In this document: positions 21,048-45,559 of the stretch, in pieces
How the letters are laid out: each line of letters begins with the position of its first letter
Position numbering within the stretch: position 1 is the stretch's first letter
Assembly: GCA_965208105.1 (NCBI GenBank)
Contig: OZ242318.1
Coordinates: 4,608,001 to 4,672,000 of the forward strand
DNA length: 64,000 nt
Direction: 5' to 3'
Origin: Candidatus Latescibacterota bacterium
Lineage (GTDB): Bacteria; Latescibacterota; UBA2968; UBA8231
The notes under the pieces: generated by a model
Told to the model about the DNA's origin: nothing
Databases searched by the model: none
What the model saw: only the letters and a program-made list of their open reading frames with translations
Made by a program: the position numbers and the translations under genes

Positions 21048-21084
21048 ATTCAGCAGCGACAGGGGATTAATCGCCCAGGGGAGC

Positions 21085-21113: not shown

Positions 21114-21184
21114 TTTATTAACCTGAAGCGAAGGGTGACGCGAAAATTGAAACGCACGAACAGACGTCTTGAAAGGAAGGGAAC

Positions 21185-22546: not shown

Positions 22547-22590
22547 TCCCGAGTTGACCGGATCATTAGACCAATTCAGGGAGGGACACG

Positions 22591-22929: not shown

Positions 22930-22995
22930 GAAGGGTGGGACCGGCATCCGGGTCGACATGCCCTGGACCCTGGCTCGCCTGGCTCGGCGCAGGGC

Positions 22996-23043
22996 ACAAA
23001 GACAACGGCGACATCCCTCGTGGGTGCTGTCGTTGTTCTTTGT
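22996..23043 (+). terminator. Long hairpin, probable terminator after glnK
   Basis: ACAAAGACAACGGCGACATCC / GGGTGCTGTCGTTGTTCTTTGT inverted repeat. Confidence 0.5.
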
Positions 23044-23111
23044 AGGGCGGCACCTTGGATGGCGCGCCTCCAACAATGGGATGACCGAATTCATTAAAGC
23101 ATGGAGAGGCC

Positions 23112-23894: not shown

Positions 23895-23939
23895 GTCGGG
23901 AATTGCTCGCCCCGCGCAGATGATGGAACACGGGACGAG

Positions 23940-24248
23940 TTGGCTGATACAACCGAGATTATCGAGCCACTGACGGAAGACCGCGTAGACTGGATTGGAG
24001 AGCAATTCGGCCGTCTGGCATGGCCAAAACCGGACGGATACTTCAGGGAGTGCTTTGCAGCGCAGGAACGCGGCGATCAAGTCGTCTTCCTGGCTCGATG
24101 CGGCGAGCAATTTCATGGTTACCTCAAGGTTGTCTGGACGCCGGATTACCCACCTTTTCGCGATCAAGATATTCCTGAGATCCAGGACCTCAATGTTGTT
24201 CCTGCTTCCCGGCGAAAGGGGGTTGCAGCGCGTCTGATGGATTCTGCT
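23940..24248 (+). pseudogene. 3'-truncated GNAT acetyltransferase
   Basis: IPEIQDLNVVPASRRKGVAARLMD is GNAT motif A. Similarity then stops and the frame runs out of phase into the next gene; motif B is missing. Confidence 0.6.
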
Positions 24249-24286
24249 TTGTCTTGTCAAAGTAGATTTGCAACTGAGGAGTCAAA

Positions 24287-25393
24287 ATGGAGCGAACAGA
24301 GCCATTACCGGAGGGCGATTCGTTGGAGGAGCTTGCGCAGAGAGTCGACCGACTGCGGTCCGATTTTGCCGAAGGGAAAAGTTCAGCAAGGAAGCGCGCT
24401 GCAGCGGTGGATGGTCCCACGGCTCCGGATAGGAATGCGCAGGATCTCGACTTTGACCATGCCCGATTGGTTATTGCCCGGGAACACAACGCCCATAGCT
24501 GGGAAGAGGCAGAAAAGTGGTTCGACCTGGCGGATCAGGTCAAAGAGGCAATGGACGCCATAACCTCTGGGGACTCCGACCGCTTCGCCGAGCTGCTCGC
24601 GGAGTATCCAGGCCTGACGGAGGAAGTATCCCACAAGGGCCGGCCATTAATTGCGGAGGCAGCCTTTTCGGGTTCAGAGGTCGAGGAAGAAAGGTTTCCT
24701 GGCAGGCTCAGCATCATAAAGATGCTTGTCGATGCGGGTTCCGACGTGAACGAGGGTCCGGACGGAGCCCTGATGTGTGCTGCGACCTGGAATGACGTGC
24801 CCGCTACGGCACTCCTCATAGAAAGCGGCGCTTTGCTCGACGGGGTGCGGGATGACAAATGGATCCTGGCGAACGCGCTGATGTTTCGCAAGGGAGACAC
24901 CGCGGCGCTCCTGGTGGAAAATGGAGCGTCGACCGATCTTGCCATGGCTGCCGGGGTTGGCCGCATGGACCTGGTGGAGGCGAAGTTCGATGTCCACGGA
25001 GCCTTGCGAGCAGGTGAAACGTTGTTCAGCGGTTGGTGGGATGGCAATCCGCCTTCCGGTCTCGATCTTTCCGAGACCCGGTTCGTGCTCGATTTCGCCT
25101 TCGCAGTTGCTTGTGCTGGCCATCACTTTGGAATAGCGGATTTCTTGTTGGATCGGGGAGCTGAGGTGGATGGCGGTGCACGGGGGTTTCTGGATGATGA
25201 CTTTTCCACGGTGCTGCACATGGCGGCATTCTTCGGGGATGAAGAACTGGTGGATTTTCTTCTGGCTCGTGGGGCCGATCCGGACCTTACCGACGAAATT
25301 CACCAGGCAACCGCTTGTGGTCACGCAGAGGCGGGTGGCCACGAGGCTTTAGCCGCCAGGTTGAGAGACGCCTCGGCTCATACCAACCGATGA
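24287..25393 (+). CDS. Ankyrin repeat protein
   Basis: GAGGAG RBS; MLVDAGSDVN, FLLDRGAEVD, TVLHMAA...FLLARGADP; N-terminal ARLVIAREH..SW motif. Confidence 0.85.
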   Translation: MERTEPLPEGDSLEELAQRVDRLRSDFAEGKSSARKRAAAVDGPTAPDRNAQDLDFDHARLVIAREHNAHSWEEAEKWFDLADQVKEAMDAITSGDSDRFAELLAEYPGLTEEVSHKGRPLIAEAAFSGSEVEEERFPGRLSIIKMLVDAGSDVNEGPDGALMCAATWNDVPATALLIESGALLDGVRDDKWILANALMFRKGDTAALLVENGASTDLAMAAGVGRMDLVEAKFDVHGALRAGETLFSGWWDGNPPSGLDLSETRFVLDFAFAVACAGHHFGIADFLLDRGAEVDGGARGFLDDDFSTVLHMAAFFGDEELVDFLLARGADPDLTDEIHQATACGHAEAGGHEALAARLRDASAHTNR

Positions 25394-25539
25394 CGGCCCT
25401 TCTGAATGGCCTCATCGGGTGACGGCGCACCGTTTGCGCAACACCACGTGGAGCCGCCCGGTCCGCAGTAGGCCGCCTGCCGGGTTGGCAGACCGTCAGG
25501 ACTTTATTCGACACCGCACGAACCAGGGAGAGGGGCCTG

Positions 25540-26196
25540 TTGGTAGATCCCAGGTCGGTGATTTTCGATTTCGACTTCACATTGGCCGACTCCTCAAGCG
25601 GGGTCTGTGAATGCGTCAACTTTGCATTTTCTCAGATGCACCTGGACTCGGTCCCGATGGCCAGGGTGTCAAAGACCATCGGACTGTCTTTGACCAGGAC
25701 CTTCGAAACGCTTGCTCCAAGGACAAGCTGGCATCGAGCCGATGAGTTTCTAACCTTGTTCAAAGAACGAGCGGATGAAATAATGGTTGGTAGGACCTCG
25801 ATTTTTCCCTCAGTACCAGCGGTACTGGAGGAGTTGGTGAGACGTGGTCTGGTTCTGGGGATTGTTTCGACGAAGTTCCGCTATCGAATACAGGAGATTA
25901 TGCAGCGTGAAGGACTGTCGGGCCACTTTGGGGTGATAGTAGGTGGTGAGGATGTCTCCGCCTACAAACCCGATCCCAGCGGTCTTCTTATCGCACTCGA
26001 TGCCTTGAGGCACTCCAGCCGCGACAGCCTTTATGTAGGCGACCATTCCATAGACGCCGAAACAGCCAGGTCGGCAAACGTGCCATTCATCGCCGTTCTA
26101 TCCGGCACCACGCCGCGAGAGCAATTCGAGCCGTGGGAGGTACTTTGTATTCTCGAGGACTTGGGTGAGTTGACAGGAGTACTGCCAGCCCGTTAA
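25540..26196 (+). CDS. HAD-superfamily phosphatase (Gph-like)
   Basis: FDFDFTL, VSTK, KPDP, VGDHSIDA. Confidence 0.9.
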   Translation: MVDPRSVIFDFDFTLADSSSGVCECVNFAFSQMHLDSVPMARVSKTIGLSLTRTFETLAPRTSWHRADEFLTLFKERADEIMVGRTSIFPSVPAVLEELVRRGLVLGIVSTKFRYRIQEIMQREGLSGHFGVIVGGEDVSAYKPDPSGLLIALDALRHSSRDSLYVGDHSIDAETARSANVPFIAVLSGTTPREQFEPWEVLCILEDLGELTGVLPAR

Positions 26197-26277
26197 GACC
26201 GTCAACGGGTGTGATTCTCCCTCCACCATTCGACCTTGGGGTTATCAAGGGGCAGGCAACCCCAAGTGAGATCATAA

Positions 26278-27810
26278 ATGGGAAACGGGAACAAGATCAT
26301 CCCTGTCGAGCAGGCGGCAGCGCTGGTTTCCGACCGGGACACTCTCGTCGCGGTCGGCGGAGGCGGTGGTCTCGTGGAACCAGATGCCCTGCTTGCGGGG
26401 ATCGAAAGGCGCTTTCTCGAGACCGGAACTCCTCGTGGTTTGCGCGTGGTCCACTCTCTGGGGATTGGAGATGGAAACCGGCGAGGACTGAACCGCCTGG
26501 CCTACGAGGGATTGGTTTCTCGCGTGATCGGCGGACACTGGGTCTGGTCGCCGCGCATGCAGGCTCTCGCCAGGGAGGAAAAGATCGAGGCCTATGTCCT
26601 GCCGGGCGGGGTTACGGCGCAGCTCATGCGCGAGATCGCCGCAGGCCGGCGGGGCCTGATCACACACGTCGGCCTTGGAACCTTCGTGGACCCGCGCCAG
26701 CAGGGCGGCCGGATGAATGCGTGTGCCAGGGATGAGCTGGTGGAGCTCATCGAGATCGATGGCCGGACCCTTCTGCGCTACAAACCCTTCCCGGTGGACA
26801 TCGCGGTGCTGCGAGGGAGTTTCGCGGACCCAGACGGAAACATCAGCATCGACCAGGAGCCCGCTACAATGGAATCCCTGGCCATGGCCATGGCCGCCCG
26901 CAACAGTGGAGGCAAGGTGCTCGTGCAGGTGCGCGAGGCTGTCGAGTGCGGCATCTTGCCGGCCAAGTCGGTCCACATTCCCGGTGCCCTCGTTGACGCG
27001 GTGGTTCTGGTGCCGGACCAGCCGCAGAGCCACCAGTTCCTCTATGACCCGACCGTTTCCGGCGAGCGCCACGAGGTCCTGCTTTCTGAGCCGCCTGGGG
27101 AATTGGGCATCCGGGAGGCCGTGGCTCGACGCGCGGCGGCCGAGCTCTCGGATGGGGACGTGGTGAACTACGGGTTTGGCATGCCGGATGCGATCCCGAA
27201 GCTGCTTGCGCGCCGGGGAGAGCAGCACCGCTACTATCAGACGATCGAACACGGGACCTACGGCGGGACCTTGATGGACGGCGCGCTGTTCGGGTTTGCC
27301 CGCAATGCGACGTGCATGATCGACTCCCCCTCTCAATTCGATTTCTACGGCGGCGGAGGCCTGGACATCGCGTTTCTGGGGTTCGGCGAGATCGATGCGG
27401 AAGGAAATGTGAACGTATCGTTTTTGGGTGGTGTCCCGGTAGGTCCTGGCGGCTTCATCGACATCGCTCAGAATGCGCGAAAAGTGGTCTTCTGCGGGTC
27501 ATTCGAGGCCAAAGGCGCGATTTTCGATATCGGTGAGGGGAAGCTGAGCGTACGGAGATACGGCGATGTTTGCAAGATGGTGAACCAGGTTGGGCAAAGG
27601 ACATTCAGCGGCAAGCAGGCCCTCGCCTCGGGGCAGCAGGTCAAATACGTGACCGAGAGGGCGGTTTTCGACCTGTCCGGGGAAGGACTGTGCCTGCGGG
27701 AGATCGCACCGGGAGTGGATTTACAGGCGGACGTGCTGGATCGGATGGGGTTTGCCCCGGTGGTGCCCCACAACCTGTCCCTGATGCCGGAAGACTGTTT
27801 CCAGGCCTGA
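26278..27810 (+). CDS. Acyl-CoA:acetate/3-ketoacid CoA transferase (YdiF/Pct-like)
   Basis: THVGLGTFVDPR, NYGFGMP, IEHG, GNVNVS, GPGGFIDI, YVTERAVF. Confidence 0.92.
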   Translation: MGNGNKIIPVEQAAALVSDRDTLVAVGGGGGLVEPDALLAGIERRFLETGTPRGLRVVHSLGIGDGNRRGLNRLAYEGLVSRVIGGHWVWSPRMQALAREEKIEAYVLPGGVTAQLMREIAAGRRGLITHVGLGTFVDPRQQGGRMNACARDELVELIEIDGRTLLRYKPFPVDIAVLRGSFADPDGNISIDQEPATMESLAMAMAARNSGGKVLVQVREAVECGILPAKSVHIPGALVDAVVLVPDQPQSHQFLYDPTVSGERHEVLLSEPPGELGIREAVARRAAAELSDGDVVNYGFGMPDAIPKLLARRGEQHRYYQTIEHGTYGGTLMDGALFGFARNATCMIDSPSQFDFYGGGGLDIAFLGFGEIDAEGNVNVSFLGGVPVGPGGFIDIAQNARKVVFCGSFEAKGAIFDIGEGKLSVRRYGDVCKMVNQVGQRTFSGKQALASGQQVKYVTERAVFDLSGEGLCLREIAPGVDLQADVLDRMGFAPVVPHNLSLMPEDCFQA

Positions 27811-27869
27811 AGGCTGCCAGCCTCCCGGCGACGGGGATGTTTTCTTCCAAAACCAACCAAGGAGCCGCA

Positions 27870-29030
27870 TTGAATTTCTCACTGAGTGACAGGGCACGCG
27901 AGAAGGTTGCGGCCGTGCGTAGCTTCGTGCGATCAGAATTACAGCCCCTGGAGGAGGAGGTCGAAGCCGGTGGACGCCTGGACCCCGCGAAGGCAGGGGA
28001 GATCTTCGAAAAATCCCGCGACCTGGGTTTCTATGCCCTGAACATTCCGGAGAAGTTCGGCGGCGGTGGCTTGACCGGGGTGGAGATGAGCTGCGTCGAG
28101 ATGGAGATGGGACAGACCTCCGACATCCTCATCCGGCGCGCCTTCGGCAATGTATATGAGGTGCTCCTGGCCTGCGACGACAGGCAGCGCGATCGATGGC
28201 TGCTGCCGACTGTCCGTGGGGAGCGGACCTGCTCCATTGCGATGACCGAGCCCGGGGCAGGCTCGGACGCTGCCGGGATAGAAACCAATGCCACCCCTGA
28301 CGGAAACGGTTGGATCCTGAACGGCTGCAAGCGCCCGATCGGAGACGGGTCGTTTTCGGACTTTTTCGTCGTCTCGGCGCGCTCAGAGCCCGTCGAAGGA
28401 TCGAGGGGCATCTCCCTGTTCCTGGTCGATAAGTCCACTCCTGGTGTAAGGGTGGGTCGAGACCTGCCGATGATGGGCAATCGCGGCACCTCCCACGTGG
28501 AGCTTTTCTTCAATGACGTCAGACTTGGCCCCGAGAATCTGCTGGGAGAGCGTGGCCGCGGCATGGGTCTGCTGCTTTCGACCATCGGCCGCATCCGCCT
28601 CTTTCACATCGGAGCACGTGCAGTGGGCATGGCGCGGCGTGTGTTGGCCATGATGATCGATCATGCCAACTCGAGGATCCAGTTTGGCAAGCCGATCGGC
28701 GAGTTCCAGATGGTCCAGCAGATGCTGGCCGACAGTGCGATCGAGTTGAACGGCGCCCGCTTGATGGTGCTCGACGCAGCCTGGGAAACCGACCAGGGAA
28801 TGGACCCTCGTGAGAAGGTGTCGATTGTGAAGGTCCATGCCGCGGAGACCCTGGGCAGGATTGCCGACCGGGCCGTCCAGATTTTCGGGGGCAGCGGTTA
28901 CTGCAGGGACCTGCCCATAGAAAGGATCTACCGGGACGCCAGAGTCATGCGCATCTTTGACGGCACTTCGGAAATTCATCGCGGCATGATCGCCAGGGGA
29001 CTGATGAAGAATGGAGTGGACGTCATCTGA
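27870..29030 (+). CDS. Acyl-CoA dehydrogenase
   Basis: AAGGAG RBS plus TTG 27870; AMTEPGAGSDA, RIQFGKPIGEFQ, QIFGGSGY, RIFDGTSEI. Confidence 0.92.
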   Translation: MNFSLSDRAREKVAAVRSFVRSELQPLEEEVEAGGRLDPAKAGEIFEKSRDLGFYALNIPEKFGGGGLTGVEMSCVEMEMGQTSDILIRRAFGNVYEVLLACDDRQRDRWLLPTVRGERTCSIAMTEPGAGSDAAGIETNATPDGNGWILNGCKRPIGDGSFSDFFVVSARSEPVEGSRGISLFLVDKSTPGVRVGRDLPMMGNRGTSHVELFFNDVRLGPENLLGERGRGMGLLLSTIGRIRLFHIGARAVGMARRVLAMMIDHANSRIQFGKPIGEFQMVQQMLADSAIELNGARLMVLDAAWETDQGMDPREKVSIVKVHAAETLGRIADRAVQIFGGSGYCRDLPIERIYRDARVMRIFDGTSEIHRGMIARGLMKNGVDVI

Positions 29031-29202
29031 GGTCCGATTCTGGACAGCCAAGGGGTGGAGGCCGTCAGAGTAGTTGTACTGGGAGGTCGTTCCTATCCTC
29101 CGTGCAGACGATCATGAAAGGACAATTTCGCGGGGCCGGCGCAGCTGAACCGGGCAACTGCACGGGGCAATTCCAAATGATGGACTCCATCGGTGAAGAG
29201 GC

Positions 29203-29907
29203 ATGCTTTCCCCCAGGGAGCTGATTGAAATCCAGGTTGAGACCCTGTTCACGTCGGATGGAAAAAGGGGTCTTCGAGGGATCAACGATCCCGACGGTGA
29301 AGCCAGTCCAGCCCCGCGGTTTTTCTTCGGCAGCACCAGGGAAGGTTCCATATGCCGGTTCCGCCATGACCTTCCGGAAAATGTGGTTGCGCGGCTGAGG
29401 AAAGCCGCCGAGGCCGAGCCGATGCTGTTGGATTCGCGGAAATTGCCGCGCTGTCACCGTCAGTTCATCGACATCCTGCAAAGCCAGGCTCCAATCGAAG
29501 GGGTATGGGCAGGGCCCGCCTACCACTTTCCCGACAGGATTGAACCGCCCAAAGATGTTGTTCGATTATCGCCTGAGAACGCAGGATTTCTGAAGGGTGA
29601 TTTTGCAGAAATGGTGCCGGAGTTGAGAAATGAACGTCCTCGTTATGGGGCCATCGAGGACTCGCAGGCGGTGTCGATTTGCCAGAGCGTCCGCTTATCG
29701 CCGCGGGCACATGAGGCAGGGGTGGATACCCTGGAGGCCTACCGCCGACGCGGGTATGCGGCCTCGGCCGTTGCCGCGTGGGCACTTGCCGTTCGAGCTC
29801 TGAACCTCGTTCCCCTCTACAGCACTTCGTGGGACAACGAGGCTTCTCAGGGCCTCGCCCGCCGCCTGGGCCTGGTGCAGTATGGCGTGGACTATCACGT
29901 GACATGA
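29203..29907 (+). CDS. GNAT family N-acetyltransferase
   Basis: EAGVDTLEAYRRRGYA and YSTSWDNEASQGLARRLG. Confidence 0.88.
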   Translation: MLSPRELIEIQVETLFTSDGKRGLRGINDPDGEASPAPRFFFGSTREGSICRFRHDLPENVVARLRKAAEAEPMLLDSRKLPRCHRQFIDILQSQAPIEGVWAGPAYHFPDRIEPPKDVVRLSPENAGFLKGDFAEMVPELRNERPRYGAIEDSQAVSICQSVRLSPRAHEAGVDTLEAYRRRGYAASAVAAWALAVRALNLVPLYSTSWDNEASQGLARRLGLVQYGVDYHVT

Positions 29908-30046
29908 TGTGGGCATCGCGGATTTTCACCTGACCTGACATGCCCGCTTGCGGGGATGCGGGACATACGGCCCTTCGGGCTACGGTTTCGACCCTAGTGC
30001 ACGGCGAAATCGCCATGCGACATCTGATTTTGGAGGCATCGGGCAA

Positions 30047-30598
30047 GTGATTGATCTCGACAAATCGAAGTTCCCATCCTTGTTCCAAAAGCGAGTATGG
30101 CCATGGGGACCGATAATTGCTGAATTTGAAACAAACCCCGATCCTCCAACAGAGTTGATCAGCAACGTCAACATGGTGCCCTATGTGGAAGATGGGAACT
30201 GGGTAATCATTCGGCATGGAGGTGGATGGTGCATCACCGGAGGGACACTCGAGCCGGGTGAAAGCTACATGGAAGCGATCGAGCGGGAACTCATGGAAGA
30301 GGCAGGTGCTCGTTTGATTTCGTTCCAGTATCTTGGTGCGTGGCATTGTCACTCTCAGGCTGACAGACCGTACAAACCGCATTTGCCGTGGCCCGAGTTT
30401 TTTCGCGTCGTCGGTTTCGGGCAGGTCGAAATCGTCGCCGACCCGGGCAATCCGGAGGATGGGGAGCAAGTCTCCGAAGTGGCCTGTCTTCCACTGGAAG
30501 AGGCATGCACCCGGCTAAGCGGGAATCCCGACGATGGTCCCGATCTGGCCGAGCTCTATCGCCTGGCTGCTTTGGCCAAGTCCGGAAAAAACAGGTAA
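30047..30598 (+). CDS. NUDIX hydrolase
   Basis: Nudix box GGTLEPGESYMEAIERELMEEAG; GGAGG before GTG 30047. Confidence 0.88.
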   Translation: MIDLDKSKFPSLFQKRVWPWGPIIAEFETNPDPPTELISNVNMVPYVEDGNWVIIRHGGGWCITGGTLEPGESYMEAIERELMEEAGARLISFQYLGAWHCHSQADRPYKPHLPWPEFFRVVGFGQVEIVADPGNPEDGEQVSEVACLPLEEACTRLSGNPDDGPDLAELYRLAALAKSGKNR

Positions 30599-30736
30599 AT
30601 TTTCCTTCATTTCCAACATCGAGAAACAGGCAAGGCCACTTAACGACCTGATTTGTTCCGCGCGCCTTGGCCTCGGGTAACAGCTAGGGACTTCGTAGGC
30701 CGAAAACATAGCTAGACATGGGATTGAGGGACTATT

Positions 30737-31525
30737 GTGGGATTAGAAGACAGATCCTTGGCGTCAATATGTCCTCCTCTTCGTCGTTTCATCGTTCCCG
30801 GGTCGGTTGTGCTTGACGTTGGTTGCGGGCCGGGTGCGATCGCCCTAGAGGTTGCAAGTGTGGTCGAAAGAGGCCGGGTGATCGGAATCGATTCCGATCC
30901 AAACAAAATACAGCGTGCAACATCGATCGCGTCTCAAGGGCGTGTCGAGAACGTTGAATTCCGGTTGGGAGATGCTACTTCACTCTCGTTCAAGGACGAT
31001 TTCTTCGACCTTGTGTACTCAACCCATGTGCTGGAGCATCTGAATGACCGGGTCGCGGCGCTTCGGGAGATGAAGCGCGTTGCCAAGCCTTCTGGTTTGG
31101 TCATCTGCTCCGCCCTGGACTCCAGTGCGGCTATGTTCTTTCCCCCATGCCCCTCCATGGAGGCAATCTACCGAGGGTGGGCTCGCCTGCCGGAAATGTC
31201 TGATTCAACTGTGGCCGATCCTGGGCTAGGGAGACGGATGTTCTCGCTGGGTATTGAAGCTGGATTCAGCTCCCTTGAAACCGAGATATTTGGAATTCCG
31301 GAATTCATGGCTACGGCGACCCACTCTGAGGAGATCGACAAGGTTTACGTCCAAGCGAAGCATCACGCTCGAAAGGATCACGAAAGATTCAGTCTGCTTG
31401 TGAATGCGGGAATTCTGTCCAAGGATCTTTCCGATCGTGCCCGAACCGAGCTGGAGGAATGGAAATCGCATCCCGGGGCTTTTTTCTCTCGGGGCGCTGG
31501 GGTTCTCATCGTGGGAAGGGCGTGA
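30737..31525 (+). CDS. Class I SAM-dependent methyltransferase
   Basis: VLDVGCGPG, GDATSLSF, EMKRVAKPSG. Confidence 0.9.
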   Translation: MGLEDRSLASICPPLRRFIVPGSVVLDVGCGPGAIALEVASVVERGRVIGIDSDPNKIQRATSIASQGRVENVEFRLGDATSLSFKDDFFDLVYSTHVLEHLNDRVAALREMKRVAKPSGLVICSALDSSAAMFFPPCPSMEAIYRGWARLPEMSDSTVADPGLGRRMFSLGIEAGFSSLETEIFGIPEFMATATHSEEIDKVYVQAKHHARKDHERFSLLVNAGILSKDLSDRARTELEEWKSHPGAFFSRGAGVLIVGRA

Positions 31526-31589
31526 AGTTTGGAGCAGCCGGATTCGAAAGAGTGTTCTCGTTGCGTTAACTATCTCCCCAACACAAAAA

Positions 31590-32012
31590 ATGATGATGCA
31601 GGTATCTATTGAAGATGATCCCCGTCCTGAGGATTTCGACTTCGTTCGCGACCGCCTCCAGGAGCATAATGCCGCCATTGTCGGGCCGGACAACTATGCA
31701 CCTCTTGCCATCTTCGCCCGAGACGGTTCAGGCTCGATTCGCGGCGGACTGCTGGGGGAAACCTTCTGGCAATGGCTCCACATCAGCACCGTATGGATCA
31801 GCCAAAGCGATCGAGGGCAGGGTCTTGGCACACGGCTCCTCGCACTGGCGGAAGAAGAGGGCATCAAGCGTGGCTGCATTGCAGTCTTTGTTGACTCCCT
31901 GAGTTTCCAGGAGCCAGACTTCTATTTGAACAGAGGATATGAAGTTTGGGGTGAGCTGAGGGACTTGCCGGTAGGGCACCGGCGGATTTTTCTTCAGAAG
32001 AAATTGGTGTAA
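31590..32012 (+). CDS. GNAT family N-acetyltransferase
   Basis: RGQGLGTRLL..AEEE and FYLNRGY; start at ATG 31590-31596. Confidence 0.9.
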   Translation: MMMQVSIEDDPRPEDFDFVRDRLQEHNAAIVGPDNYAPLAIFARDGSGSIRGGLLGETFWQWLHISTVWISQSDRGQGLGTRLLALAEEEGIKRGCIAVFVDSLSFQEPDFYLNRGYEVWGELRDLPVGHRRIFLQKKLV

Positions 32013-32073
32013 GGCGGAGACCGCAGGCAGGTTTGGCAACGGGCAAAAGGTTAAGCGACAAGGAGAGGGTGCG

Positions 32074-32442
32074 ATGTTCAAGGAAGCCATACCAATCCTG
32101 GGTGTTGCAAGTTCGGAGATCGCCGAGGAATTCTACTGCGAACGGCTCGGGTTCCGGCGTCTGTACGCCTACAGGCCCAAGCCGGCCAAGCCCGATCCCT
32201 GCTATATGGGAGTAGGCCGAGACGCGGTCCATATAGTTGTTTCCTCTTTTGAAGGCGACGGTCCACCAGGCAGCCGCAACGTCCAGATCTATGTCGAAGA
32301 CGCGACGGCAATCTACGAGGAATTCAAGCAGGCAGGGGTTTCGGTTGGAGAGATTTTCGATCAGACCTGGGGCAACATCGAGTTCTCTTTCGCCGATCCG
32401 GATGGAAACAGCATAATTATCGCTCAACACAAGGCTGACTAA
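32074..32442 (+). CDS. VOC / bleomycin-resistance family protein
   Basis: FYCERLGF, QTWG..EF...DPDGN; AAGGAG RBS. Confidence 0.88.
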   Translation: MFKEAIPILGVASSEIAEEFYCERLGFRRLYAYRPKPAKPDPCYMGVGRDAVHIVVSSFEGDGPPGSRNVQIYVEDATAIYEEFKQAGVSVGEIFDQTWGNIEFSFADPDGNSIIIAQHKAD

Positions 32443-32593
32443 GTAACCCCTGGTCATTTTACAGCGCGTTTTGTGCTGTGCCATTTGAATGGCTGGCCAG
32501 CGGCAATCCGGTTCCCGAGTTGGCAAGTCCAGCATTACGTTGTGATCCATTCCGCATGGAAAGGGGAATCGACATCAAACCAGGAGAATATCG

Positions 32594-32920
32594 ATGAAGG
32601 TATTGAAGACGTGGTTGCTCTACTATGTGCACGATATGGATCGGGCAAAGGCATTCTATATGAAGACCTTTCAGGTCAAACCCCTGAAGGAGACAGAAGG
32701 TTGGACGGAACTGGATTTCGGCTCTTTGGTGCTGGCGTTGCACACTCTGCCTGCCCACGGAGGAGGTACCATGCCCCATGCAGGGCTGATCGTTCAGGTA
32801 GACAACCTGGATGGGGTTCAAGCCGACATAGAGCGAAATGGGGGACGGCTGGTGGAAAAACGCGACGAGGGGTACCGCTGCTGTGAGGATTCCGAGGGCA
32901 ATGGTTTCGAGCTATGCTAA
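32594..32920 (+). CDS. VOC / glyoxalase family protein
   Basis: VHDMDRAKAFY and DSEGNGFEL; AGGAG RBS. Confidence 0.85.
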   Translation: MKVLKTWLLYYVHDMDRAKAFYMKTFQVKPLKETEGWTELDFGSLVLALHTLPAHGGGTMPHAGLIVQVDNLDGVQADIERNGGRLVEKRDEGYRCCEDSEGNGFELC

Positions 32921-33014
32921 CCCAGCCCGGATTGCCGTGATCTAAGTTCCCCTTTGGGATGCCGTCAGTAATGGCGCCGGGTCCGGCCGCCTTTCAGCCT
33001 CTTTTGGTGCGTCT

Positions 33015-33704
33015 ATGGACAATCGCCTGGATATCGAGCAGGTAGCCTCGTTAGCTGTGTGTGCCATAAATCGCGGCTGGCTTCGAAGGCTTCGGTCAAT
33101 CGTTGAAAGCTATCCCGAGTATGTGAGTCAAACACTCGAAATTGGAGCGATGAGCCTTGGCGGAAGAAGGCTGGGTGAGGATTCCGACATACTCATGTGC
33201 GTCGAGTTCGTCGCTGAAAGGGGCATGGAGATTACGGCCCGGCTGCCCGGTCTGGATAGCTGCTTCAAGTATTGTCCGTCAGTGGCTCATTTCCTGCTGA
33301 ATCTAGGCCTCGATTCGAATATTACCGATGGGCGGGGCAATACCGGTCTTCACTATATGGCAGAAATCGGCTACGTGAGTGCAGTAAGGGAGCTGCTGTC
33401 CCATGGAGCGGACAGTCGACACAAGAACGATGACGGCTTAACGGCTTGGGATGTGGCCAACGAAGAAGGCAATCGACGAACCCAGAGATGCCTTGAGGGA
33501 CAGAAAGTGAATTCTTGCAGTGACATGGAAATCCGGTGGTTTTCCCGCCGCCGTGGATATGGATACATCAGAAATTCAATTTCCGGCGATATATATTTCG
33601 AGCACTCCTGTGCACCTGGCTGCGGGATAGAAGAGGGGACCAGGTTGGAATTCGATTTGGACTGTGATGATTTTGGCCCCACCGCTGACAACATCCACCT
33701 ATAA
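33015..33704 (+). CDS. Ankyrin repeat plus C-terminal cold-shock domain protein
   Basis: GNTGLHYMA...LLSHGAD, GLTAWDVA; IRWF...RGYGYI (RNP1), DIYFEHS (RNP2), GPTADNI. Confidence 0.75.
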   Translation: MDNRLDIEQVASLAVCAINRGWLRRLRSIVESYPEYVSQTLEIGAMSLGGRRLGEDSDILMCVEFVAERGMEITARLPGLDSCFKYCPSVAHFLLNLGLDSNITDGRGNTGLHYMAEIGYVSAVRELLSHGADSRHKNDDGLTAWDVANEEGNRRTQRCLEGQKVNSCSDMEIRWFSRRRGYGYIRNSISGDIYFEHSCAPGCGIEEGTRLEFDLDCDDFGPTADNIHL

Positions 33705-33778
33705 CCGGGCATGTCCAGCTTCGGGCTTATGCTCTTAAGAGAACCGCTCCGAGGCCAGGCACGGCGAAGACCCTATGG
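33699..33778 (+). repeat. Degenerate attC-like site
   Basis: CTATAAC contains the stop codon. Arm CATGTCCAGCTTCGG vs reverse complement CGTGCCTGGCCTCGG (10/15, all transitions). Right core decayed to CCTATGG. Confidence 0.4.
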
Positions 33779-33805
33779 GCAATTGAATTTCAGGTTCTCA
33801 CCGAA

Positions 33806-34642
33806 ATGATCTTTGACATTGGTGAGACAAAAAATGCGGTCCTCGATCCTGAAGTCGATCACCTCATCGAGGGCCTGCCGCTCGCTATCGAGAGAGAGTA
33901 TACATTCACGGCGCCTGGCGACTACAGATCCTATCCGCGTATCGACCCCGTGCAGCGGATTCCAGCCTCCGAGAAGCATATCGGCTGCGTTCTCCGATAC
34001 CTGCGGCAGGTCCGACCCAGACTCAATACAGTTATTTCTCTGCTCAAAGAGGAAAGAGGGCGCGGGCTGGATGTAGGTATTGGCTTCGGGCTTATCGAGG
34101 TCGCTCTCACAGATTACTTCGGTGTGCAGATCGAGGGTTCCGAGCTGCCATTCAATATCAATAGCTATTGTGCGATACCCCTGAACCGCGGGATTCGGGT
34201 GACGCCTTGGGATCTGGGATCGGTTCCGCCATTCAGACGGGGGACCTTCAACTTTCTCGTGCTGATGGAAGTCCTGGAGCATCTCAAACTACCGCCGGGG
34301 AGAACGATTTCCAGAATTGCCTCTTTGATCGCACCTGGCGGGCGATTGATTCTCACGACACCAAACATTGCCCGTCAAGCGAATCTCGAGGCTCTGCAGT
34401 ACGGGCGAAACATCTTCGAGGCCTACCGCGAGGATCTCCCGGACAACCTGGACGTGACCGATTACGTCTCGCACATTCGGGAATACACGATTTCTGAAGT
34501 TGTAGAGCACGTGGAAAATGCAGGCCTGAGAATCGAGCAAGTCCTCACCTGCAATCAATGGGCACCGCATGATCGGCTGCTTGAACCATTGCGCAACGAC
34601 ATCACCATCGTCGATGCGAGAAAGGGACAAGGAAGCAATTGA
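33806..34642 (+). CDS. Class I SAM-dependent methyltransferase
   Basis: LDVGIGFG, EVLEHL, LILTTPN, HIREYT. Confidence 0.85.
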   Translation: MIFDIGETKNAVLDPEVDHLIEGLPLAIEREYTFTAPGDYRSYPRIDPVQRIPASEKHIGCVLRYLRQVRPRLNTVISLLKEERGRGLDVGIGFGLIEVALTDYFGVQIEGSELPFNINSYCAIPLNRGIRVTPWDLGSVPPFRRGTFNFLVLMEVLEHLKLPPGRTISRIASLIAPGGRLILTTPNIARQANLEALQYGRNIFEAYREDLPDNLDVTDYVSHIREYTISEVVEHVENAGLRIEQVLTCNQWAPHDRLLEPLRNDITIVDARKGQGSN

Positions 34643-34771
34643 ATGGCGATGCCTGAAGGCAGCACAGCGGCCGCCTCTGCGGGGCTGTACCGCCCCTGGC
34701 CTGCGGCAAACACTTGCGGATTCAGAGATCCGGCGAGGGTCAGGGGAAGAAGGAATTAGAATCGGAGACCG

Positions 34772-35884
34772 ATGATCAGACTGACTCAAATTACCCTGGA
34801 ACAGTTGGAGTGGTACAGGGAACAGACTGGCGGTCATTATGGAATGGAATTCGAGTTCGAAGGTCCGTCGGGATTCTTTGGATTCTATGGCGAGTTTGAT
34901 ATCTCCGGCGAAGGCGAGGTTTGCCTGGAGAACCTCCTGGTAGCCAATTCCTGTGAACACGAACAGGGTGAGATGATTGCCGAGATCAGTGCACTGCGGC
35001 AGACTGTCATGGACGGCATCTGGACCTCTACATTGCAACAGGAAAATAGCATCGAAGCGATTTGGGAGGAGTTCAGACTGGAGCTTTTTTCCGAACCGAC
35101 CCGGGATGGAACTGTTGCGACTCATTTGCTGCTCTCACACGAAGATCCCGCAATATTCAGAGAGCCCTATTTCAAGAGTGGATTCAAATTGCGTTCCGAC
35201 CGCGCCGATGAGGAGTCCGAGCTGCAAAATCCCGGCAACTACTACCCCGTAAGTCCTGGAAGAGCCCCCGAACAGGCGGAGGTTGTCGATGCGGCCGAGC
35301 TTGCAGGTCGCATTCAGGGTAAGTCTCTGGTGGCGTTCACGGGCGCCGGGTTATCGGCGGCGGCAGGCATTCCCCCCTTGAAGGGGAAAGGTGGATTGGG
35401 GGAGCGCTTCCCTATCCACGATCGCCGTTTTGCCGGGGCCGTGGCCGATTGGATCCTGCACCGTCCTCGTGAGACGGCTATGGTACTTGGGAGGTTCTAT
35501 ACCGGATTCATGACTGCCAGTCCCACTCCAGCCCACTCGGCTCTTGCACAATTGGAGCAGCGGGGAATACTGAAGCATGTCATTACGGGCAATTTTGACG
35601 GGCTGCATGAGCGGGCCGGCAGCCAAAAGGTGCATATCAACGAAGCCAGATATTTTAAAATGTCGAACGAGGGCTGGACCTGGATCGAGGAGGGCGAGGT
35701 CGCCCTGGTTGTTGGCGTGTCGATGGATGCGGACTACGGTCTGCTGGACTATGCCCGAAACAAAGATCTCCAGGTTGTGGTTATGGCACCGAGTCGCCCG
35801 GAATTCATGCACCCACAGGACTGGTTCGTCGAAGGTCTCGCCGAGGATATTCTGCCGGAGCTTTGCAGCATTCTCATTGCTTGA
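34772..35884 (+). CDS. Sir2-like protein with long N-terminal extension
   Basis: FTGAGLSAAAGIP, PTPAHSALAQL, ITGNFDGLHERAG, LVVGVS. Confidence 0.75.
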   Translation: MIRLTQITLEQLEWYREQTGGHYGMEFEFEGPSGFFGFYGEFDISGEGEVCLENLLVANSCEHEQGEMIAEISALRQTVMDGIWTSTLQQENSIEAIWEEFRLELFSEPTRDGTVATHLLLSHEDPAIFREPYFKSGFKLRSDRADEESELQNPGNYYPVSPGRAPEQAEVVDAAELAGRIQGKSLVAFTGAGLSAAAGIPPLKGKGGLGERFPIHDRRFAGAVADWILHRPRETAMVLGRFYTGFMTASPTPAHSALAQLEQRGILKHVITGNFDGLHERAGSQKVHINEARYFKMSNEGWTWIEEGEVALVVGVSMDADYGLLDYARNKDLQVVVMAPSRPEFMHPQDWFVEGLAEDILPELCSILIA

Positions 35885-35997
35885 ACACCCTCTTCACGAG
35901 ATGGCCCAGTTGGGCCGGTTGGCCGGTCCAGGCTGCCCGGGTGGGCTAGGCTGGCCCCAAGGGCAGGGGAAGGTGCCGTCTGCTAAGGCGAACTGAA

Positions 35998-36666
35998 ATG
36001 AGAAGCAGCCACGTAGGTATTTTCAATCACGACGAGGACGCTGCCACCTATGACCGTGATGTGCTCAGGTCCGACGACCCCGTAAGGGAAGGCTACACCG
36101 AGGTTCTTGACTGGGTCGCTCGGAAAGCTGCCGTCACCGGGGATTCGACCGTTTTGGAGCTCGGCTCCGGAACCGGGAATTTGACCGCCCGATTGCCGCC
36201 GTGCCGGTCCCTGGTCTGTGTCGACGCCTCTGCTGAGATGATCACCCTCGCCCGGCGAAAGTTTCGGGACCGGTCTCACATCTCCCATGTGCAGGCGGAT
36301 ATACTTGAGTACTTCGATCTCCACAATCACCCATTCGAGATCGTGGTCAGTACCTACGCCCTCCATCATCTCACCGAGGGGGAGAAGCGATTTCTGTTCG
36401 ACCGGCTGGTGGAAAGACTGCCGCGGGGGGGACGTGCGTTATTTGGCGACCTGATGCTGGCATGCGCGGGGCAGGAAAGCATTTTGTCAGATCACTACCG
36501 TTCGCTCGGTGACGAGGCAACGGCGGCCGCCATCGAAGAGGAGTTCTTCTGGCACCTCGATGCGGCGGTCGACCACCTGCGCAACCTGGGTCTCTCGGTG
36601 GAGACGGCCAGATTCTCCCCTCTGTCATGGGGAATGGAGGTCATCCTGCCGCAGACCGCCGGCTGA
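35998..36666 (+). CDS. Class I SAM-dependent methyltransferase
   Basis: VLELGSGTGNL and STYALHHL. Confidence 0.9.
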   Translation: MRSSHVGIFNHDEDAATYDRDVLRSDDPVREGYTEVLDWVARKAAVTGDSTVLELGSGTGNLTARLPPCRSLVCVDASAEMITLARRKFRDRSHISHVQADILEYFDLHNHPFEIVVSTYALHHLTEGEKRFLFDRLVERLPRGGRALFGDLMLACAGQESILSDHYRSLGDEATAAAIEEEFFWHLDAAVDHLRNLGLSVETARFSPLSWGMEVILPQTAG

Positions 36667-36751
36667 TAACAGCGCGGTATCCGGCAATTGCACCCCGGGG
36701 AGAACCGGGTTGATTTGAGGCGGTGGCTGCTGCCCCGCGAACCGCAAGGCC

Positions 36752-37525
36752 ATGGCTGTGGAACAATACGCAAGCAGTGAAAACCTGGATGCCAGAATCG
36801 TTCTGCACGAGCGCTTCAGCACCAACAGGTACGGATGGGGCAGGTGGGTGTTCGACCAGCTTCGAGTGCCGCCGCGGAGCACCATTCTCGAGCTGGGATG
36901 CGGCACCGGCTCTCTCTGGTCGAGGAATATCGATCGAATTCCCGAGGACTGGACCGTCGTCCTGAGTGACCTGTCTGCGGGCATGCTTGAACGGGCTCGA
37001 ACAGACCTGTCCCAGGGCGGGAAAATTTTCGCCTTCGGTCGGATCGACGCCCAGTCAATCGCCATGCAAGACGGGACCGTCGATGTCGTCGTTGCCAATC
37101 ACGTTCTCTACCACGTGTCCGATCGTCCAAGGGCCTATTCCGAGATTCGCCGAGTTCTCAGGCCGGGGGGGCAACTTTACGCCGCGACCAACGGAAAGAC
37201 CGCCTCGGCGGGAATTCCGGAGTTGGTGCAACGAGTCAAGCCGGATGCCTACGGCGAAGTGCCGGAGACGAGAACATTGTTCTCCCTGGAGAACGGTGCC
37301 GGGGAGTTGTCCAGGTGGTTTGCCGGGGTTGAGGTCCTCCAATACGAAGACTCGTTCCTGGTCACCGAGGCCCAGCCATTGATCGATTACGTCGCATCGA
37401 CGCAACGTCTGAACGAGGACGAGTTGGCGCGCTTCGGCGCGCTGGTGATGGCGGAGATCTCCCGAAGTTCGGAGATCCGCATACCAAAAAATTCGGGAAT
37501 GTTCCGGGCAAGGAAGACCTGGTAG
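36752..37525 (+). CDS. Class I SAM-dependent methyltransferase
   Basis: ILELGCGTG, ANHVLYHV, RVLRPGG. Confidence 0.9.
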   Translation: MAVEQYASSENLDARIVLHERFSTNRYGWGRWVFDQLRVPPRSTILELGCGTGSLWSRNIDRIPEDWTVVLSDLSAGMLERARTDLSQGGKIFAFGRIDAQSIAMQDGTVDVVVANHVLYHVSDRPRAYSEIRRVLRPGGQLYAATNGKTASAGIPELVQRVKPDAYGEVPETRTLFSLENGAGELSRWFAGVEVLQYEDSFLVTEAQPLIDYVASTQRLNEDELARFGALVMAEISRSSEIRIPKNSGMFRARKTW

Positions 37526-37628
37526 AATCATCCTCCCGCGCCAGGGACGGATTACACTACCTCACACAATTTCGTGCCGGGCATTGGTCCATGCCTTACG
37601 GCCCGGACCAACGGAAAAATTGACTGGA

Positions 37629-38360
37629 ATGGATGTATCGGCAGAATACTGCGTCCGCGATTGGTTCAAGACCCTCCATGAGAGTTTCTGGCTTCGCCCG
37701 GACGAAGGGGGAGAGGAAGAAGCCGGTTTCCTCCGACGGGCGTTGCGTATCCGCAAGGGCCAGCGCGTCCTGGATGCTCCCTGCGGGGCGGGGCGTGTCG
37801 CATACCATCTGGCCAGGCATGGAATAGATGTCGTCGGGATCGATCTGCAATCGGCCTTCATAAACCGGGCTGAGCGAAGATTCGCCAGAAACGGGGTGGA
37901 AGCCGATCTCAGGATCTTGGACCTGCGATCGATCGAGTTCGATAACGAGTTCCACGCGGTCTACAACTGGTTCAACAGCTTCGGATACTTTTCCGAAGGC
38001 GAGAATGCCGACCTGGTTAGGCGATTCGCCCGCGCCCTGCGTCCAGGTGGACGGCTGCTGATCGAGCAAACGAACCGCGAGCGGATACTGCGGAACTTCC
38101 GTCCTGTGACCGCCAGGCATGGCGTGCTGCTCCGGTCGAGGTGGGACGCCGAAAAGGAACGCCTCCTCGTACAACATGAATGTGAGGGGATTGCGGCAGC
38201 CGAAAGCGGATCGTCTCAACGTCTCTATACCCTGTCGCAGATGCGAAAACTGGTTGCCTCGGCAGGTCTCGATGTGGAGATTGTCCATGGATCGTTGAAC
38301 CGCGAGCCCTACCGCCGGGGCAGCGGTAAGATGATGGTCGTCGCCCGTAAGGGCCGTTAA
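37629..38360 (+). CDS. Class I SAM-dependent methyltransferase
   Basis: VLDAPCGAGR, FNSFGYF, ALRPGG; start uncertain (37584-37629). Confidence 0.88.
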   Translation: MDVSAEYCVRDWFKTLHESFWLRPDEGGEEEAGFLRRALRIRKGQRVLDAPCGAGRVAYHLARHGIDVVGIDLQSAFINRAERRFARNGVEADLRILDLRSIEFDNEFHAVYNWFNSFGYFSEGENADLVRRFARALRPGGRLLIEQTNRERILRNFRPVTARHGVLLRSRWDAEKERLLVQHECEGIAAAESGSSQRLYTLSQMRKLVASAGLDVEIVHGSLNREPYRRGSGKMMVVARKGR

Positions 38361-38396
38361 CGCCCAAAGTTGAGGTACGCAGGGAGTGGTCACCGA

Positions 38397-38774
38397 ATGG
38401 ATATCCGCGGAGTAGACTTCGTGGTGCATTACGTACGCGATCTGGAGGAGGCGGTTTCATTCTACCGCGATACCCTCGATCTCAAGTTGGAGCTGCACAA
38501 CCCACAGTGGAATTGGGCGGAATTTTCCGTTCCCCCTATTACTCTTGTCCTCTTCGGCACATACAAGGGGGCGCCTCTGACACATGGGAAAGGGGGAAGC
38601 GGCCTAGCCCTGGCGGTGGACGATTTCGACGCTGCGATCGAAGAATTGCGCCGCAAAGGCGTGGAGGTCGGGTGGGGTCCGAACGAGCTTTCCACCTGCC
38701 ATGTGGCCATGATCACCGATCCTGGAGGGAATCCGCTTTTCATCCACAAGCGCAAGGATGGAAGCTGGGGTTAG
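38397..38774 (+). CDS. VOC / glyoxalase family protein
   Basis: VRDLEEAVSFYRDTL, LAVDD, DPGGN. Confidence 0.88.
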   Translation: MDIRGVDFVVHYVRDLEEAVSFYRDTLDLKLELHNPQWNWAEFSVPPITLVLFGTYKGAPLTHGKGGSGLALAVDDFDAAIEELRRKGVEVGWGPNELSTCHVAMITDPGGNPLFIHKRKDGSWG

Positions 38775-38920
38775 TGTCCGTGGACCTGAATGAAGCTCTC
38801 CTGCAGCAGGGAAGTTGAGCGTCCGTTCAAATCAACCTCCAGATGCCCCTGTGACGGAGGGCATGCGTTCCGGACCGCTTTACCTGATTGACTGGTCCAT
38901 AATCCCATTGGAGGGGCAGG

Positions 38921-39523
38921 ATGAATGGTTGGCGTGAACTGAGATTCCCGGTGGACTCTCTGAAGAAGCAGGTCCTCGTGGTCGAGGACGACCGCGGGAG
39001 AGTACTTGCCGATCCCCTTCGGTGGAAAATCCTCGAGACCCTCGGAGACGGGAAGTCGGTCGCAGAGCTTTCGCAGAGCTTGAAAGTTACCGATTCCCGG
39101 TTGCTGTACCATCTGAAACGGCTGGCGCAGACAGGTGTCGTTTACCTGAAGAAGGATGGAAGAATGCCCGGGCAATGGCGCTGTTTGCCTGCTGCGGGGC
39201 AGATCCGCGTTCGAGAGCTACCTCCTCCGCCGAAGGAGCAAGTTCCCGAGGCCATGCCTGTCGATATTGCCGGGCAGTTCAACCAGGCAGTTCGCGAAGC
39301 TGCCGAAGGCTTGTACGGTATGACCTTTCAGACTTCGGTCAACCACAACCGCGCGCGGCTATCCCAAGAGCAGGCATCCGAGTTCAGTCGCCGATTGTTG
39401 GCGCTGATAGAAGAATACTTTCCTCCGGGTAAAGGAGATCGCGGGGGGATCAAATACGGATTCTACGGAGTTCTCACACCGATCGACCTTCCTCCTCTCG
39501 CAGACTCTGAAGCAACGGAGTGA
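38921..39523 (+). CDS. ArsR-like winged helix-turn-helix regulator
   Basis: LADPLRWKILETL...SVAELS...YHLKRLAQTG; C-terminal LSQEQASEF helix. Confidence 0.8.
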   Translation: MNGWRELRFPVDSLKKQVLVVEDDRGRVLADPLRWKILETLGDGKSVAELSQSLKVTDSRLLYHLKRLAQTGVVYLKKDGRMPGQWRCLPAAGQIRVRELPPPPKEQVPEAMPVDIAGQFNQAVREAAEGLYGMTFQTSVNHNRARLSQEQASEFSRRLLALIEEYFPPGKGDRGGIKYGFYGVLTPIDLPPLADSEATE

Positions 39524-39662
39524 GACTTGCCGGAAGACGCCATGGCGGGATGGCAGCCCCCGCGTGGGAGCCTCGCATGAGGAATGAAGTTGAAGGGGGT
39601 TTCTCTGATTTTCCGGCGGCGCATGCAGGGTGTGGCAGATCTCACCGATCCTCCATGCAATC

Positions 39663-44209: not shown

Positions 44210-44210
44210 A

Positions 44211-45557: not shown

Positions 45558-45559
45558 CG

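Follow-up and report, generated by a model that had tools for sequence, protein, structure and literature searches.

In a 64,000-nt stretch of chromosome C1 of a Candidatus Latescibacterota bacterium (genome G000), hereafter the window, a run of small co-oriented genes from position 23940 to ~37600, and possibly to 39523, is very probably an old cassette array of integron type, far from any integrase, i.e. a cluster of attC sites lacking an integron integrase (CALIN) whose attC sites are degenerate. As used here, the term requires a minimum of two attC sites in a span of a few kb and no integron integrase in their vicinity; in the part of Cury et al. 2016 (PMC4889954) that defines CALINs, the minimum is two attC sites called with the general model of IntegronFinder, on which published calls rely. 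The sites of the window array were detected only with models built from the genome's own site family. Our reading is based on the homology of spacer remnants to this family, on their orientation and position and on better-preserved sites in a genome of the same genus (G001), together with cassette-scale rearrangement, an intermediate G+C content at third codon positions (GC3) and purifying selection on the genes. A first-pass annotation of this DNA had proposed an old integron array with decaying sites, and the family models support it by matching three spacers, in cassette orientation and directly after stop codons. Throughout, genes are crude picks of open reading frames (ORFs).

The site family was exposed by a scan of G000 for ATAAC...GTTAT hairpins, which revealed elements of ~84 nt. 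A covariance model built from 11 copies (R1) gave 87 matches at E < 1 among the 150 first-look candidates scored in the genome: 46 at C1 2010548-2060601, all on one strand, 11 at 1.04 Mb, 5 at 1.08 Mb, 13 at 2.74 Mb, 3 at 4.49 Mb, 4 as singles and 5 in the window. The same kind of count, again among 150 first-look candidates scored, gave 102 attC matches in many arrays of G001. All 11 aligned copies share the termini ATAACG and TGTTAT without variation, and the L''/L' arm covaries, with 6 of 11 pairs altered on both sides. By pair counting in this 11-row alignment, 80% of cells pair overall, compared with 29-46% when the partner columns are slid; RNAalifold returned no structure for the gappy 52-row alignment. 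With paired R''/R' boxes carrying AAC/GTT, a paired L''/L' arm, a variable centre and lengths of 65-143 nt, the family has the anatomy of attC sites, which includes a length of ~57-141 nt. Read in cassette orientation, the consensus runs from R'' (TATAACA) through a G+C-rich L'' arm, a branched centre and the L' arm to AAAACGTTAT. For genes on the plus strand, cassette orientation places the sites on the minus strand. Of 52 intact cassettes, 10 use the TAA within R'' as their stop codon, and in the remaining 42 the ORF stops 11-136 nt upstream of the site. The main array (C1:2010548-2060601, 50 kb) has at least 46 sites on one strand and 54 of its 61 ORFs on the opposite strand. Its cargo (43 ORFs) includes nine SAM-methyltransferases, five GNATs, Ank, HAD and nucleotidyltransferases, as well as a toxin-antitoxin-type cassette with a HigB-like Pfam match. 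The array at 4.49 Mb, with three matches for nine genes, also looks eroded.

A second covariance model, built from 52 copies (R2) and run on the window with filters off, gave seven matches of at least 18.7 bits, all on the minus strand and all in spacers after plus-strand genes; the next best match, at 10.8 bits, marks the noise floor. R1 recovered five of these seven matches, and an nhmmer profile, used as a sequence-only cross-check, recovered them all. Three are remnants within the array, spaced 2.4 kb and 1.2 kb apart. Remnant 1 (29932-30019, minus strand; R2 22.3 bits, E = 0.0016; R1 20.4 bits, E = 0.0072; nhmmer E = 0.048) has lost both core triplets (AAC to GAC and GTT to GCC) and folds with a z-score of -1.21. 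Remnant 2 (32455-32542, minus strand; R2 20.6 bits, E = 0.0043; R1 8.9 bits, E = 7.4; nhmmer E = 0.22) holds ACAGCGCG; the AAC of its R'' box is gone (TAC) and the GTT of R' is retained. Remnant 3 (33696-33779, minus strand; R1 23.2 bits, E = 0.0013; R2 18.7 bits, E = 0.014; nhmmer E = 0.0032) retains R'' as CTATAAC, in which TAA is a stop codon, and has lost the GTT of R' (CCT). Since each remnant is short of at least one core triplet, none has the anatomy of a recombination-competent site, and their fold z-scores of -0.86 to -1.21 compare with a mean of -2.81 for ten intact copies. Fainter traces were also found. A half-site fragment comprising L' and R' (32027-32056, plus strand; nhmmer E = 2.4, not significant alone) is homologous to the 3' 30 nt of a G001 attC site at 4062644-4062723 (23.9 bits), which lies ahead of the VOC gene, and a possible R''-L'' fragment, GATAACAGCGCGG (36663-36683, plus strand; R1 8.5 bits, E = 9.4; nhmmer E = 16, not significant alone), fits the consensus TATAACA followed by a G+C-rich arm. 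The spacer between the methyltransferase and SIR2 genes gave a sub-threshold match only (nhmmer E = 0.97). Overall, 4 of the 25 weaker nhmmer matches (25483-25508, 32027-32055, 34674-34726 and 36665-36683) fall in array spacers on the same strand as the stronger matches, although such positions amount to just 1.2% of the search space (post hoc P = 2e-4).

Most genes of the window array are found in G001 at C1:4052239-4074407, with 78-88% identity and in a different order, and two orthologous sites there are better preserved. R2 gave 11 minus-strand matches in this syntenic array, between 4052137 and 4071454 (48.5, 44.6, 35.5, 23.9, 21.7, 19.0, 17.1, 15.2, 13.0, 12.8 and 11.5 bits), with intact sites of 45-80 bits further left. 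Ten of the 11 stand immediately after the end of a gene; the remaining one, of 48.5 bits, ends just upstream of the start of a GNAT gene (GNAT-a). The 44.6-bit site, which stands behind a gene for an ankyrin and cold-shock domain protein (Ank-CSD) and has CGTTAT intact, is the ortholog of remnant 3 (18.7-23.2 bits in the window). Likewise, the 35.5-bit site behind a second GNAT gene (GNAT-b) is the ortholog of remnant 1 (20.4-22.3 bits). These two G001 sites have E-values of 1e-9 and 3e-7, and in both alignments the window copy is altered at the R boxes, with GTT to CCT in one and AAC to GAC and GTT to GCC in the other. The orthologous site pairs and the lost fold stability show that the hairpins of the window have decayed. 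For remnant 2 there is no orthologous site to compare, as window positions 32470-32692 are absent from G001. Behind its ortholog of gene 36752-37525, G001 retains a 21.7-bit site.

Synteny, to which the first-pass annotation had looked for a decision, is not conserved: gene order in G001 is shuffled in cassette-sized units (0.9-3.5 kb) that are gained, lost or reordered, and where a site survives, homology ends at R'. The HAD gene, an ankyrin gene and a CoA-transferase/acyl-CoA dehydrogenase pair stand elsewhere within the G001 array. There, HAD follows GNAT-b and is flanked by attC sites of 35.5 and 13 bits, the ankyrin gene lies at 4057492-4058291 after a 15.2-bit attC-like site, and the pair moves as a block (window 26243-29051 matches G001 4052907-4055715, 88% identity). 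Homology between the genomes behind GNAT-b stops at the R' box, and the GNAT-a and ankyrin units begin 10-12 nt after a G001 site (10 nt for GNAT-a). The GNAT-b and GNAT-c orthologs lie at 4059610-4060314 and 4061257-4061700, respectively. A NUDIX gene was not found at the G001 locus and has a 71% match only, at another attC array (278569-278853), and methyltransferase 30737-31525 was not found in the G001 array, no G001 block covering this gene. VOC gene 2 is truncated at its 5' end in G001, where homology begins at window position 32693; from there to 35884 a block with the Ank-CSD, methyltransferase and SIR2 genes is 88% identical. Window 35993-45984 is then collinear with G001 4069808-4079762 (80% identity), and a 3.5-kb insertion with three more genes is present in G001 just upstream of its ortholog of gene 35998-36666. 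Direct alignment of the spacers downstream of SIR2 in the two genomes showed no clear homology. The extra units of G001 encode a CAAX protease, methyltransferases, EamA, an AadA_C-type nucleotidyltransferase, an unknown 510-aa protein and a pyrophosphatase-like product. Three transposase genes (two of the Mutator family, one of the IS5-type DDE class) and a UPF0236 gene interrupt the counterpart array at G001 4041745-4051376. On the left, window 16693-23927 is collinear with G001 234000-226747 (84% identity) and this collinearity ends 33 nt after a PhyH gene; the G000 junction lies within 23928-23934. PhyH abuts an attC array in both genomes (G001 C1:225560-226800), and the differing cassettes behind it point to exchange or a split between arrays.

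The roughly 19 same-strand genes with short spacers described by the first-pass annotation lie among 20 plus-strand ORFs at 23112-39523, with spacers of 9 to 172 nt. All 20 have Pfam matches: PhyH, GNAT (three), Ank (two), HAD, CoA-transferase, acyl-CoA dehydrogenase, NUDIX, SAM-methyltransferase (five), VOC (three), SIR2 and an ArsR-type HTH. They are co-oriented, mostly in single-gene units, and the strand of the sites is fixed relative to the genes. Judged by protein family, this cargo matches that of the intact cassettes of G000. In tblastn searches of the 20 proteins against the genome, few paralogs were found in other arrays (one for NUDIX at 30% identity, two for methyltransferase 30737-31525 at 28-30% and one for methyltransferase 37584-38360 at 24%).

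The PhyH dioxygenase gene (23112-23894; PF05721, 133 bits), with a core-like GC3 of 0.79, is conserved flank and forms the left edge of the array; it is not a cassette. Its protein has ~20 paralogs (24-39% identity) scattered on the G000 chromosome. The candidate cassette genes begin with the 5' fragment of a truncated gene, GNAT-a (23940-24248; weak Pfam match, 22.6 bits), whose ORF extends to 24563 through unrelated sequence and whose homology to a 173-aa GNAT of G001 is limited to 23935-24248. It is followed by the ankyrin-repeat gene (24287-25393; Ank) and the HAD hydrolase gene (25540-26196; HAD_2, 125 bits), the latter with a ratio of non-synonymous to synonymous substitution rates (dN/dS) between G000 and G001 of 0.18. 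The two-gene unit at 26278-29030 consists of the CoA-transferase gene (26278-27810) and the acyl-CoA dehydrogenase gene (likely start 27837), both assigned by Pfam, with dN/dS of 0.12 and 0.10 and GC3 of 0.77 and 0.70, respectively. Next are GNAT-b (29203-29907; GNAT_acetyltran, dN/dS 0.22), the NUDIX gene (30047-30598; likely GTG start at 30047 after GGAGG), a SAM-methyltransferase gene (30737-31525; Methyltransf_31, 94.8 bits), GNAT-c (31590-32012; dN/dS 0.18), VOC/glyoxalase gene 1 (32074-32442; dN/dS 0.08) and VOC gene 2 (32594-32920), the last three by Pfam match. The Ank-CSD gene (33015-33704; Ank_2, CSD weak; dN/dS 0.23) ends in a TAA that falls within the R'' box of remnant 3. Then come, again by Pfam, a methyltransferase gene (33806-34642) and a SIR2-family gene (34772-35884), with dN/dS of 0.26 and 0.35, and a SAM-methyltransferase gene (35998-36666). 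The final stretch, 36752-39523, contains methyltransferase genes 36752-37525 and 37584-38360, VOC gene 3 (38370-38774) and the ArsR-type HTH gene (38921-39523), all with Pfam matches; the three pairs measured here (36752-37525, VOC gene 3 and HTH, with 37584-38360 outside the set) have dN/dS of 0.10-0.21. Models gave no attC trace in the window across 36752-39523; the array has no defined right end.

In all 13 G000/G001 gene pairs of the array dN/dS was 0.08-0.35, and nine flank genes gave 0.08-0.22; the array genes are under purifying selection. Synonymous divergence (dS) is uneven among them, from 0.23 to 0.85. The Ank-CSD/methyltransferase/SIR2 block has dS of 0.23-0.32, below all nine flank genes (0.42-0.73), which could reflect transfer of 32693-35884 after the species split. 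Nor is codon usage uniform, another feature the first-pass annotation had asked about: the mean GC3 of the 20 genes (0.647) is above that of intact cassettes (0.585, n = 99, p = 9e-5) and below that of the rest of the genome (0.733, n = 3580, p = 4e-5).

A second, better preserved array is present in the window at 1971-6819, where plus-strand genes encode, by Pfam, an APH phosphotransferase, a GNAT, HEAT repeats and another GNAT. Its minus-strand sites lie at 2757-2839 (R2 34.0 bits), 3726-3829 (31.5 bits), 4425-4520 (36.2 bits) and 5905-6003 (21.0 bits).

The first-pass annotation had reached the array through short motifs, all of which we located: stop codons running into TAA-C at 32920, 33704 and 38360, TGA-TAAC at 36666, TGA-AC at 35884, ACTTAAC at 30638, GTTAAGC at 32050 and ACAGCGCG at 32461 and 36669. 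An additional TAA-C stop is present at 24563. As marks of sites, some of these motifs held and others did not. The stop at 33704 (TAA-C) coincides with the R'' box of remnant 3, GTTAAGC at 32050 is the R' box of the half-site, and both copies of ACAGCGCG are the conserved continuation of R'' and belong to attC remnants, that at 36669 to the possible R''-L'' fragment. No model supports ACTTAAC at 30638, the TGA-AC at 35884 or the TAAC stops at 32920 and 38360. Taken as plain recurrence, two copies of one 8-mer in ~1.6 kb of spacer equal the chance expectation. The enrichment suggested for these stops holds for TAAC (4 of 20, versus 3.7% of 3687 genome ORFs, binomial p = 0.006, and 5.1% of 1307 GC3-matched ORFs, p = 0.017), in a post hoc test that reflects largely an excess of TAA (8 of 20 versus 13.8%); TGAAC is at chance (1 of 20). 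The recurring TTCG loops were not borne out: TTCG occurs in the spacers at chance (6 seen, 6.97 expected), neither TTCG nor CTTCG is enriched, and the loops have no model support. Promoter-like and terminator-like sites are also at or below shuffled expectation (5 versus 5.5 and 13 versus 16.7). Finally, the classical core patterns are not those of this lineage, which uses TATAACA at R'' and CGTTAT at R' instead. An integron integrase (IntI) above the TIGR02249 cut-off (265 bits) was found in 8 of 41 related genomes, and a scan for RYYYAAC...GTTRRRY beside these true IntI genes gave nothing convincing; therefore, the classical scan is not a valid test in this lineage. Indeed, the IntI gene of G019 adjoins an array of ~120-nt hairpins with the termini (G/C)ATAAC...GTTAT(C/G), which recur in G008 and break the RYYYAAC/GTTRRRY rule, and this explains the negative scan.

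No tyrosine recombinase was seen in the window. The main array of G000, 2.6 Mb from the window array, ends 0.7 kb from an IntI-like tyrosine recombinase gene in the divergent integron layout. TIGR02249 is the best family of this recombinase, and the scores are 210.8 bits for the G000 gene, which carries an in-frame TAA, and 230.7 bits for the intact G001 gene, a complete 312-aa ORF (L037:1315-2253). Its closest solved relative is VchIntIA (PDB 2a3v), of which residues 179-237 (59 residues) are replaced by 17. The recombinase thus has neither a score above the cut-off nor the additional domain, and does not qualify as IntI by these features; it is 39% identical to the IntI of G019. Between G000 and G001 it shows 91-92% identity with dN/dS of 0.255 and a dS of 0.166, below all nine core flank genes. 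Orthologs with 73-92% identity occur in four further genera (84-92% in G016, G014 and G010), and the 92% found in another genus may indicate horizontal spread. The copies of G000 and G016 carry stops; the matches in G014 and G010 have no internal stop. In five of five genomes with enough flank (G000, G001, G016, G014 and G010), an R2 site lies upstream of the recombinase gene in the same layout.

The additional domain of IntI is held to be necessary for integron integrase activity. We propose, tentatively and as a minority possibility, that the attC arrays of this bacterial family, including the ancestor of the window array, may be serviced by this conserved IntI-like recombinase, which has no such domain. 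In favour are its position at the array end in all five genomes, the complete G001 copy, the G014 and G010 matches with no internal stop, the dN/dS of 0.255, and the 87-102 sites each in G000 and G001, which have no IntI above the cut-off. The stops in the G000 and G016 copies speak against it, activity is a prediction from sequence, and these genomes may just have lost a canonical IntI.

Several results weigh against the CALIN interpretation. Only 3 of ~17 spacers in the array region carry a detectable remnant, at modest scores, plus the two half-site fragments. The model E-values come from a shortened calibration, and remnant 2, weak with R1 and nhmmer, is the least certain of the three. The junction at 24248 lies inside the GNAT-a gene and not at a site. 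The CoA-transferase/acyl-CoA dehydrogenase unit has no attC trace in G000 or G001 and may never have consisted of cassettes; the same may be true of the last genes (37584-39523), which have no cassette mark in either genome. No integron integrase above the TIGR02249 cut-off was found in G000 or G001, and the recombinase at the main array is without model positions 180-234, the additional domain that defines IntI. Beside the bona fide IntI genes of relatives R2 gave no match (8 loci, 87.7 kb), so that the link of the family to classical integrons is one of architecture, termini and layout, not of sequence. Finally, conventional searches were at background: between 23000 and 40000 a single strict RYYYAAC...GTTRRRY pair was found, within a gene (0.39 expected per strand), repeat finding returned only short chance-like families, none tied to spacers, and the 15 spacers of at least 35 nt fold no better than 150 other co-directional spacers (z of -0.67 versus -0.72, p = 0.60).

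These background-level pattern, repeat, terminator and folding tests, with TTCG and the repeated 8-mer at chance, are what would be seen if the region were an ordinary variable island of accessory genes co-oriented with replication, its motifs and weak matches being fortuitous. A positive GC skew over 22-40 kb, downstream genes that are likewise mostly on the plus strand and insertion sequence elements flanking the G001 array, which could drive rearrangement, would fit as well. However, three matches 8-12 bits above the noise floor lie on the expected strand and at the expected positions, the orthologous G001 sites are highly significant, the same signal appears in the second array of the window, and GC3 is intermediate. 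We regard this explanation as the least probable of all, already contradicted by the window remnants and their G001 counterparts. Scarcely more probable is that the array is a still-mobilisable CALIN, served by an integrase in trans, with weak scores reflecting a divergent attC subfamily. Cassette order does differ between the congeners, the low dS of the Ank-CSD/methyltransferase/SIR2 block (0.23-0.32 versus 0.42-0.73 in the flank) could mean exchange after the split, and possible mobilisation in trans is noted in Cury et al. 2016 (PMC4889954), in its treatment of CALINs. Against this, no remnant retains both conserved triplets and remnant 1 retains neither, the hairpins are destabilised relative to intact sites, most spacers have no site at all, and G000 has a cognate recombinase with an in-frame stop and no IntI above the cut-off.

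A somewhat more serious, though still improbable, alternative concerns the family itself: the 84-nt hairpins could belong to another integron-like cassette system, operated by the neighbouring recombinase, or be REP-like repeats, with the window array a relic of that system instead of a strictly defined integron. The recombinase scores below the cut-off even when intact (230.7 versus 265 bits), has 17 residues in place of 59 in VchIntIA, is conserved with an R2 site upstream in every genome with enough flank, and R2 does not match the sites adjoining bona fide IntI genes of relatives. The elements nevertheless have attC anatomy, with AAC/GTT in paired R boxes, a covarying L arm and a variable centre; there is one site per co-oriented ORF, with stop codons within R'', and relatives with an IntI above the cut-off share the ATAAC...GTTAT termini and the layout. 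Moreover, both the best family and the solved relative of the recombinase are integron integrases, as is the G019 protein to which it is 39% identical, and REP elements do not build one-per-gene arrays that end at a recombinase gene.

If the region is an old CALIN, as we consider very probable, each small gene or gene pair would be a former promoterless cassette ending in an attC hairpin of the 84-nt family. Cassettes would have entered and moved by site-specific recombination at R', carried out by an integrase that was once active on them, and the region would represent the distal, old part of a cassette array. Array turnover has presumably ceased and the sole cognate integrase-like gene of G000 is broken, so nothing would now maintain the hairpins. 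These have decayed, probably neutrally, through point changes and small deletions, and the array would now be immobile; the genes, kept by purifying selection, would be in the course of being fixed as ordinary chromosomal genes.

The Vibrio superintegron is a sedentary chromosomal integron, and the main array of G000 resembles it in its many highly similar attC sites (at least 46), its co-oriented cassettes, its toxin-antitoxin-type cassette and the divergent recombinase at one end. Unlike in Vibrio, the G000 recombinase is broken and has no additional domain, and the window array lies 2.6 Mb away. The passages on CALINs in Cury et al. 2016 (PMC4889954) propose intI loss, or a rearrangement that splits an array, as their origins, and CALINs with degenerate attC sites as a stage. 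The window array is like the CALINs described there in its co-oriented small cassettes, attC-type sites and lack of a nearby integrase, but its sites are mostly eroded past recognition, with three remnants for ~17 spacers and none retaining both triplets. Inactivated intI genes and fixed arrays are also known from the chromosomal integrons of Xanthomonas (10.1101/2025.06.18.660453, which also summarises Gillings et al. 2005). As presented in the sections of that work on these integrons, an ancestral platform had its integrase inactivated by stops or deletions, arrays were stable thereafter, and CALINs occupy conserved chromosomal positions with content that varies between related lineages, all of which is similar to our case. 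In contrast, those sections count attC sites that can still be called and do not use the terms decay or degenerate. In the window array, which belongs to a different host lineage, erosion is visible through orthologous site pairs. A full-text literature search returned no work that follows attC erosion by comparing orthologous sites, and an eroded array is a known but seldom documented stage in the settling of captured genes.

Integron arrays are viewed as stores of mobile genes, and the route by which cassettes become fixed is mostly conjecture. Here, two related complete genomes share cassettes whose sites are at different stages of decay and whose genes are under purifying selection. The encoded proteins are unremarkable (acetyltransferases, methyltransferases, glyoxalase-type proteins, NUDIX, ankyrin and SIR2). 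In this pair of genomes the step put forward in Cury et al. 2016 (PMC4889954) can be seen in a concrete case that lends itself to dating. If the recombinase that has no additional domain does service these arrays, single-strand hairpin cassette recombination would work, or would once have worked, without that domain, and the differing erosion of the main array, of the two window arrays (2757-6003 and 29932-33779) and of the G001 orthologs would record the time each array has spent beyond the reach of the enzyme. Classical cores, repeat finders and fold statistics missed the window array, and a model built from the genome's own intact sites found it; therefore, surveys restricted to well-formed attC sites will underestimate the integron-derived share of the chromosome.

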